From the NCBI RefSeq assembly GCF_003334765.1, contig NZ_QOWT01000139.1: DNA of 333 nucleotides; one strand, 5' to 3'. Made by a program: the position numbers and the translations under genes. How positions within the stretch are numbered: the stretch's first letter is position 1; each line of letters opens with the position of its first letter. Shown piece after piece: positions 1 through 333 of this stretch. The DNA comes from Escherichia coli (GTDB taxonomy: Bacteria; Pseudomonadota; Gammaproteobacteria; Enterobacterales; Enterobacteriaceae). The notes beneath the pieces were generated by a model. It was not told the DNA's origin, searched no databases, and worked only from the letters and a program-made list of their open reading frames with translations.

Positions 1-192
1 CGTATTCACCAACAACATCCGACATCCCGTCTTTTTCCGTTCTGTACCGGTAAATACCGCTGGCACGGCAGTGCTGAGGCGTATACCGGTCGTGAAGTGC
101 AGGATATTCCCGGTGTGCTGGCTGTATTTGCAGAACGCCGTAAGGACAGTTTTGGCCCGTATGTCCGCCTGATGAGTGTCACCCTGAACTGA
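1..192 (+). CDS. yeeT: DUF987 family small protein (YeeT-like), 5'-truncated by the window edge; C-terminal 63 codons plus TGA stop
   Basis: Frame 1 is open from position 1 to the TGA at 190-192 and translates to RIHQQHPTSRLFPFCTGKYRWHGSAEAYTGREVQDIPGVLAVFAERRKDSFGPYVRLMSVTLN*. This matches my recollection of the C-terminal 63 residues of the 73-aa E. coli YeeT, so the start would lie about 30 nt upstream of the window. Identification is from memory, not a search. Confidence 0.85.
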   Translation, partial: RIHQQHPTSRLFPFCTGKYRWHGSAEAYTGREVQDIPGVLAVFAERRKDSFGPYVRLMSVTLN

Positions 193-200
193 GTCAGGGC

Positions 201-217
201 ATTCTGATGAGCAGAAT
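201..217 (+). repeat. Short inverted repeat ATTCTG-N5-CAGAAT in the yeeT-cbeA spacer; potential 6-bp stem / 5-nt loop in the mRNA or a small dyad site
   Basis: Directly visible: 201-206 ATTCTG and 212-217 CAGAAT are exact reverse complements separated by ATGAG. The stem does not extend (200 C vs 218 T) and no T-run follows, so it is not a canonical intrinsic terminator. The repeat is certain; any function is speculative. Confidence 0.3.
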
Positions 218-255
218 TATCGCCACTACCGGACCATTCTTAACCGATTTTCTGT

Positions 256-260
256 GAGGA
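256..260 (+). promoter_or_regulatory. Shine-Dalgarno sequence (GAGGA) for the cbeA GTG start
   Basis: GAGGA at 256-260 is complementary to the 16S rRNA 3' end; a 7-nt spacer (TTTTATC, 261-267) separates it from GTG 268. Confidence 0.65.
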
Positions 261-267
261 TTTTATC

Positions 268-333
268 GTGTCAGACACACTCCCCGGGACAACACTTCCC
301 GACGACAATCACGACCGCCCCTGGTGGGGGCTG
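268..333 (+). CDS. cbeA: Type IV toxin-antitoxin antitoxin CbeA (YeeU family), N-terminal 22 codons only; 3'-truncated by the window edge
   Basis: GTG at 268-270 is the first plausible start after the in-frame stop at 241-243 and sits 7 nt downstream of a GAGGA. Translation is (M)SDTLPGTTLPDDNHDRPWWGL, open to the window end. This matches the N-terminus of YeeU/CbeA as I recall it, including the N-terminal extension that the shorter paralogs YfjZ and YafW lack. The position immediately downstream of a yeeT-like gene fits the known yeeT-cbeA order. Confidence 0.85.
   Translation, partial: MSDTLPGTTLPDDNHDRPWWGL

Follow-up and report, generated by a model that had tools for sequence, protein, structure and literature searches.

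A near-identical in-phase nine-nucleotide repeat in the leader of the antitoxin gene cbeA: a probably incidental, allele-specific feature at which in-frame 15-nt deletions end

At the start of the antitoxin gene cbeA (yeeU), which belongs to the CbtA/CbeA type IV toxin-antitoxin pair, the tripeptide Thr-Leu-Pro occurs twice in close succession and is encoded by two almost identical stretches of DNA. The question raised by this locus is whether the repeat records an internal duplication, serves the protein or its expression in some way, or is a coincidence of one allele. The DNA analysed (the window, 333 nt in its whole length) is made up of the following parts:

1..192, + strand: 3' end of the DUF987 (yeeT-like) gene, assigned from the DUF987 CDS in the identical D8 record and the ORF listing.
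193..267, + strand: yeeT-like/cbeA spacer of 75 nt, holding an upstream ORF and the cbeA Shine-Dalgarno sequence.
268..333, + strand: first 22 codons of cbeA (yeeU) with GTG start, MSDTLPGTTLPDDNHDRPWWGL, assigned from PGAP, translation, the 2H28 match and the conservation profile.

The window was 100% identical to the chromosome of E. coli D8 and spans the junction of a DUF987 (yeeT-like) gene and cbeA in a CP4-44-like island; related sequence was present in 4,809 of 5,426 complete E. coli genomes, with a median of 3 copies per genome. The order of genes in the D8 island is Ag43-type autotransporter, DUF932, antirestriction, JAB/RadC-like, DUF987 (yeeT-like), cbeA, CbtA-family toxin, DUF5983, DUF957 and DUF4942, matched in K-12 by yeeS, yeeT, cbeA, cbtA and yeeW. 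The DUF987 gene ends in ...RLMSVTLN with the stop codon TGA at 190-192, and the product of K-12 yeeT is the same DUF987 protein (WP_000692323.1). The GTG at 268 is the start chosen by PGAP in the identical D8 record and is preceded by the Shine-Dalgarno sequence GAGGA at 256-260, 7 nt on its 5' side. Residues 1-18 form a variable leader rich in Thr, Pro and Asp, after which W19-W20-G21-L22 open the conserved PF06154 core. In D8 the complete gene (L001 4268-4642) lies directly upstream of the CbtA-family toxin gene (4689-5066, same strand), an arrangement also found in K-12. The D8 protein (124 aa) matched the YeeU structures 2H28 (E=2.3e-78, residues 1-117) and 2INW (E=3.6e-79), precomputed PF06154 hits were present on all close homologues, and the identical D8 gene is named cbeA by PGAP; by this family match, D8 CbeA is a putative CbtA antitoxin.

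Several observations were made in the same region. An extra gene of about 640 nt lies between the DUF987 and YeeU-family antitoxin genes at L003 1332-1976 (annotated as "hypothetical protein") and L005 1828-2460 (annotated as a frameshifted "antitoxin of toxin-antitoxin stability system"), and is missing from the island type of the window. Where metagenomic alleles have a longer spacer between DUF987 and cbeA, a gene of 37 residues giving no Pfam hit is called in it and begins at the end of the DUF987 gene (L009 138-251, L010 138-251, L012 74-187). The spacer of the window holds an upstream ORF of 16 codons (207-257, + strand, ATG…TGA, MSRIIATTGPFLTDFL*), the stop codon of which (255-257) overlaps the cbeA GAGGA (256-260); the K-12 version ends in TAA. 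In some alleles this ORF is in frame with cbeA and the annotated products start with MSRIIATIEPFLTDFCEDFIVSDT… (protein clusters P0012, P0032, P0064, P0080), apparently through a 1-nt shorter T run, as judged from the proteins; translational coupling to cbeA and a start-site annotation artefact are both possible. Two minus-strand sigma-70-like promoter matches (274-247 and 243-216; 2 versus 0.3 expected in shuffles) would, as predicted consensus matches, drive antisense transcription into the DUF987 gene. A 22-codon ORF on the minus strand (240-308) was rejected, being short, antisense to the well-supported cbeA and without support of its own.

The repeat itself comprises the following features:

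277..285, + strand: repeat copy 1, ACACTCCCC, codons 4-6, Thr-Leu-Pro (ACA CTC CCC).
292..300, + strand: repeat copy 2, ACACTTCCC, codons 9-11, Thr-Leu-Pro (ACA CTT CCC).
277..308, + strand: imperfect tandem array of period 15 found by TRF, 2.1 copies with one 1-nt indel, score 41.

The two copies match at 8 of 9 positions, or at 9 of 10 when the next base, G (286/301), is counted, and both are in phase with the GTG at 268, giving VSDTLPGTTLPDDNHDRPWWGL by translation and the leader peptide MSD-TLP-GT-TLP-DDNHDRPWWGL in the window. The repeat had been singled out in a preliminary description as a near-identical in-phase 9-nt repeat encoding TLPG-TTLPD, and its coordinates, its 8/9 match and its phase were all confirmed. 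When units of 15 nt are set in register, the identity is 9/15 and falls entirely within the first 10 nt, the last five positions matching at 0/5. The repeat is part of the published sequence of cbeA/yeeU, a characterised gene with solved structures, and is thus already known.

Whether such similarity exceeds chance was found to depend on the statistic chosen, and the tests disagree. In the window, 5 pairs of 9-mers agreed at 8 or more of 9 positions, against 5.6 expected from dinucleotide shuffles; at least one 8/9 pair within 30 nt was present in 35% of dinucleotide shuffles, and in 16% when the pair had to be in phase. A search of the window for direct-repeat families reported none. A tripeptide recurring within 10 residues was obtained in 21% of whole-protein shuffles and in 2.3% of shuffles of the 19-residue leader. 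TRF joined the two copies through one 1-nt indel (period 15, 82% matches) with a score of 41, obtained at a relaxed threshold, the stated default of the tool being 50. This score was reached or exceeded in 74 of 20,000 shuffles of the whole window, in 66 of 20,000 shuffles restricted to 268-333 and in 105 of 20,000 codon permutations of the cbeA part, and in 34.6 kb of real island DNA arrays at this level occurred solely at this site, in two loci. For one pre-specified window the similarity is therefore nominally unusual (about 0.4%), and marginally so; since an E. coli-sized genome contains about 14,000 such windows, about 50 chance cases are expected in it. In Thr/Pro/Asp-rich tails, short in-phase repeats this similar arise by chance dozens of times per genome. 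The preliminary description had allowed that the similarity might lie within chance expectation; the repeat stands only marginally above it, with a verdict that changes with the statistic.

The leaders of related proteins were compared next to that of the window. A search of a collection of 5.8 billion proteins returned 1,868 relatives, and leaders were inspected for the best 120 of these, in which the protein is highly conserved except between MSD and PWWGL, where it varies. The leader forms among relatives include TLPGTTLP (K-12/D8), TLPGTTHP, TLSGTTHP, KLSGITHP, ALSGTMLP, TLHETNYP, TLHETNHP, SRHETNYP and others, and the Shigella YeeU (2INW) has TLPGTTPP. Among six allele classes, the DNA identity of unit 1 to unit 2 was 8/9 in K-12/D8 alone; it was 6/9 in TLPGTTHP and TLSGTTHP, 4/9 in KLSGITHP and ALSGTMLP, and 2/9 in TLHETNYP (the APEC paralogue). 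By majority rule the leader reads TLPGTTHPDD (codons 9-11 ACG CAT CCC), and its commoner Thr-His-Pro unit 2, ACGCATCCC, lies two bases from copy 2 of K-12/D8. The leaders of Enterobacter, Citrobacter and Yersinia among the best 120 of the 1,868 relatives are 15-17 residues long (for example MSNKIPSVNHDIAEPWWGL) and align to that of E. coli in MAFFT with a single 3-residue gap; no repeat was present in the leaders of other Enterobacterales among those 120. The repeat structure is thus not common to orthologues and paralogues, being lost both in same-length alleles and in other Enterobacterales. The earlier suggestion of a small internal duplication is not demonstrated by this evidence: the same-length leaders of other alleles align without any repeat structure. 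The companion suggestion, that the leader sets YeeU apart from YfjZ, held in so far as YfjZ is without a leader and failed in so far as the leader is not specific to YeeU: leaders of 15-19 residues are general in the CbeA-like clade (Enterobacter, Citrobacter, Yersinia), so that the YfjZ type is the short exception.

Other variation in these proteins was recorded. The leader indels of protein clusters P0035, P0040 and P0064 (minus 1 or 2 codons) fall in a repetitive run of GAC/AAC codons. In E. coli TOE17 (L008 381-773, NZ_CP069093.1) one extra A follows GTGTCAGAC and shifts the frame, so that PGAP places the start farther upstream, at a GTG within the Shine-Dalgarno region, with the product VRTLSCQTTLPGTTPPDD…. 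The CbeA proteins of D8 (L001 4268-4642) and K-12 (L002 3266-3634) are identical over their first 97 residues and then show a few substitutions, ending in …VYPTLAPATTS and …VYPTPEMKN, respectively. A small set of C-terminal tail types (PEMKN, PETKK, APATTS) recurs among homologues, a pattern suggestive of mosaic recombination between copies of the island.

Alleles lacking one unit, which the preliminary description had not foreseen, were found in addition. The feature is given here in one of its registers:

283..297, + strand: the 15 nt missing from short alleles, one register, from alignments of L004, L005, L006 and L007 to K-12 and D8.

The protein cluster P0058 has the leader MSD-TLP-DDNNDRP…, exactly five residues shorter; an exact-product search for P0058 matched no contig. 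A 102-nt "deleted" probe returned by megablast only undeleted alleles, each split into two pieces. Junction probes of 46 nt were therefore built so that undeleted alleles drop below the E-value limit, and the one-unit probe gave full-length ungapped matches in 62-70 of 5,426 complete genomes; the short allele, encoding MSD-TLP-DDNHD..., is accordingly carried by about 1% of complete E. coli genomes. A search of complete E. coli genomes for an expanded allele with three units found none. Copy number of the unit is thus polymorphic, as one versus two units.

Short alleles were aligned at four loci, which present four flanking backgrounds and two junction registers and are all in frame. The allele of strain 14EC033 differs from K-12 by the 15-nt gap and one other difference over the 186 nt compared (76 nt before the start codon, mostly spacer, plus the first 110 nt of cbeA) and keeps ACACTC with the C of the first copy. 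In O104:H4 2009EL-2071 the same gap occurs in a D8-like background and ACACTT is kept, with the T of the second copy. The short allele of strain 317 keeps the C and has different downstream codons (NNDS), and that of AR_0085, ACACTCTCC, has the C of the first copy and lies in an island with an extra gene between the DUF987 and antitoxin genes. Deletion windows from 283-297 through 287-301 fit the alleles keeping CTC, and those from 277-291 through 282-296 fit the O104:H4 allele keeping CTT. In all four short alleles the end points of the gap lie inside the two repeat copies, and one hybrid copy remains. Since the two registers flank the single mismatch between the copies, at least two events, or else a later synonymous change, are called for; the number of events is uncertain because islands recombine, and fewer than four events may lie behind the four backgrounds. 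This is not phase variation, because the 15-nt unit keeps the frame and full-length antitoxins are encoded. The opposite polarity, with the short form ancestral and the two-unit form derived, was ruled out: a freshly duplicated 15 nt would be identical, the actual units have 6 mismatches in 15 positions, and the 14EC033 allele nests within K-12-type sequence.

An intact CbtA-family toxin gene lies downstream of three of the four short alleles, whose shortened antitoxin is thus presumably functional. At the 14EC033 locus (L004 2510-2902, NZ_CP024147.1) the short cbeA has a replaced, longer C-terminus and is followed by dsdC, with no toxin gene. Upstream of it are a transposase gene of IS30 and a transposase pseudogene of the IS911 family, and the locus has the appearance of a truncated island in decay that has kept an orphan antitoxin.

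The leader proved far more variable than the rest of the protein: 47% of alignment columns were variable in codons 4-13, as against 16% in codons 19-117, and positions 4, 6-7, 9-10, 15 and 17 were without a majority consensus, most of the core being at least 90% conserved. From summed Nei-Gojobori counts, pN/pS was 0.64-0.74 in the leader and 0.19 in the core. These values indicate that the leader is probably under relaxed constraint and evolves almost neutrally, tolerating substitutions and small in-frame indels; diversifying selection was ruled out by a leader pN/pS below 1. In an AlphaFold2 model built from a 57-sequence alignment (poor overall, with a mean pLDDT of 59.6), residues 1-19, which showed no secondary structure, and 119-124 were the sole segments with pLDDT below 50; the best Foldseek matches of this model in the PDB were 2INW, 2H28, 2EA9 and 2JN7 (probability 1.00, TM 0.47-0.64). 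In E. coli YeeU, 109 and 104 residues are modelled in chains 2H28_A and 2H28_B of a 130-residue construct; bounded from these chain lengths, and on the assumption of a complete 99-residue core, a minimum of about 8-13 of the 18 leader residues have no coordinates, so that the leader seems partly unmodelled in 2H28. In the Shigella YeeU (2INW), 117 and 116 of 133 residues are modelled, and the leader may be ordered over most of its length there. The YeeU structure was reportedly published by Arbing et al. in 2010.

Neutralisation of CbtA by K-12 CbeA, and likewise by YafW and YfjZ, is described by Wen et al. 2017 (PMC5371832), and K-12 CbeA is stated to neutralise CbtA and to bundle MreB/FtsZ (Masuda 2012, as cited in a later paper). 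As YfjZ neutralises CbtA without a leader, the leader should in principle be dispensable for antitoxin activity. The expectation in the preliminary description that this is a weakly important and probably disordered tail fits the variability, the pN/pS values, the low pLDDT and the cross-neutralisation.

The reading preferred here, with a probability of roughly 0.75, is that the repeat is real yet incidental, confined to one allele type in a near-neutral leader, without detectable function and with one mutational consequence. Codons 4-6 and 9-11 would merely happen to be nearly identical in the K-12/D8 allele; copies of 9-10 nt spaced by 15 nt could then misalign during replication or recombination, and such misalignment would delete exactly one 15-nt unit in frame. 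From the position of the gap ends we infer that slippage between the repeat copies caused the deletions. Some observations sit uneasily with this account. A similarity reached in about 0.4% of shuffles is an uncomfortable coincidence for a single window, and both base differences between unit 2 of K-12 and that of the majority go towards unit 1, a shift that may point to an origin by duplication or to a short templated conversion instead of coincidence. As to slippage, it should sometimes expand the array, yet no three-unit allele was seen, and the AR_0085 allele (ACACTCTCCGAC) may stem from a parent with a weaker repeat, in which case the 9/10 match is perhaps not needed.

The strongest competitor, possible but doubtful, is an old tandem duplication in which a single x-[IL]-P unit (15 nt, 5 codons) was doubled to TLPGT-TLPDD, the copies diverged, and the one-unit alleles are reversions. 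It would account for the period-15 TRF array at a score found in about 0.4% of shuffles, although that per-window figure is the chance level in a genome-wide scan; the similarity is moreover confined to 10 of 15 nt with 0/5 in the rest, and can be extended only through a 1-nt indel that breaks the frame. Leader lengths speak in its favour when counted to an NHD anchor, before which 8 residues (MSNKIPSV) stand in other Enterobacterales and 13 (MSDTLPGTTLPDD) in E. coli: the difference is exactly one 5-residue unit, the short alleles (MSDTLPDD) match the outgroup length, and KIP and TLP share an alignment position. The anchor itself varies, however (NND, NDD, HND, NNN), MAFFT favours a single 3-residue gap over a 5+2 arrangement, and leader lengths (15, 16, 17 and 19) grade into one another with no one-unit step. 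Every other same-length allele is, furthermore, far less similar from unit to unit, the majority leader reaching 7/15. An origin by old duplication is in any case compatible with a repeat that has no function.

A more consequential version was judged very improbable, namely that the two-unit leader arose from a 5-codon duplication of x-[IL]-P and that its length is recurrently toggled and selectable, tuning the antitoxin; if true, leader length may tune the partner specificity towards the several co-resident CbtA-type toxins, the stability, or the conjugative transfer of the protein.

A functional peptide motif, in which the doubled Thr-Leu-Pro acts as a bivalent contact to MreB/FtsZ, as a recognition or degradation tag, or as a type IV secretion signal, is hardly tenable. 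In its favour, two-unit DNA of the K-12 type is commoner than any other form (in about 2,800 genomes a 40-nt stretch lies one mismatch from the probe, as in K-12/D8), and translocation of CbeA via an F-like T4SS has been reported (PMC11288057). The motif is broken, however, in most paralogous alleles and in Shigella YeeU, the leader evolves at a pN/pS of about 0.7, and one-unit deletions occur in strains that retain the toxin gene. CbeA, YagB and YfjZ, with lengths of 122, 116 and 105 aa, were all recovered as translocated through the F-like conjugative type IV secretion system (PMC11288057), and since long-leader and leaderless members are both among them the signal for transfer probably lies outside the leader; the leaderless YfjZ both neutralises CbtA, according to PMC5371832, and is translocated, according to PMC11288057.

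A role in nucleic acid, with the copies serving as half-sites of an autoregulatory operator or as part of an mRNA signal tuning initiation at cbeA, is scarcely credible. In its favour, toxin-antitoxin operons are often autoregulated via repeats, and the repeat lies 9-33 nt past the start codon, a region in which initiation can depend on mRNA structure. Against it, the repeat lies downstream of the start codon and not at a promoter; at a spacing of 15 nt the two copies face opposite sides of the helix; paralogous islands with the same Shine-Dalgarno sequence and start do not conserve the repeat; the Rfam scan of the window matched no family (best 19.7 bits, with a gathering score of 100); the RNA fold of 235-333 did not improve on shuffled sequences (z = 0.30); and the consulted passages of the CbeA/CbtA literature, PMC5371832 among them, contain no report of DNA binding by CbeA. 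Sub-threshold Rfam matches (E up to 10) to eukaryotic/viral snoRNA and SECIS were taken as chance, and the window gave no plus-strand promoter-like site and no terminator-like site. A hairpin, GCCCCT-GGT-GGGGGC (317-331, + strand), on which the MFE and centroid folds agree, was noted in the R-P-W-W-G codons.

What the locus adds to knowledge is one modest item, a recurrent in-frame 15-nt indel in the CbeA leader bounded by the repeat. A natural leader-shortened antitoxin beside an intact toxin gene suggests that residues 7-11 are dispensable. In-frame loss of sequence between repeat copies, in a tail under weak constraint, is a textbook process, and the finding matters very little.

Compared with slippage or misalignment deletions in general, the short alleles likewise have gap ends within the copies, a remaining hybrid copy, both registers and a preserved frame; they differ in that contraction was seen here and no expansion. 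YfjZ (CP4-57) shares the PF06154 core and aligns to CbeA residues 19-117 (E=2.5e-41), residue 5 of the 105-aa YfjZ chains 2EA9/2JN7 aligning to CbeA residue 19, but it has about 4 residues before W-G-L as against 18-19 in CbeA and is without leader and repeat. YafW (CP4-6) has the same PF06154 core as CbeA and is, we assume, likewise a shorter paralogue than YeeU. The closest known system is cbeA of K-12 itself (CP4-44 prophage; PF06154; 2H28, 2INW), which has the same gene order as D8 (JAB/RadC-like, DUF987, cbeA, cbtA, DUF5983) and first 22 codons identical to those of the window in DNA and protein; D8 CbeA differs from it in belonging to another island copy, in its C-terminal tail and in a few core substitutions, and the two are alike throughout the coordinates of the repeat.
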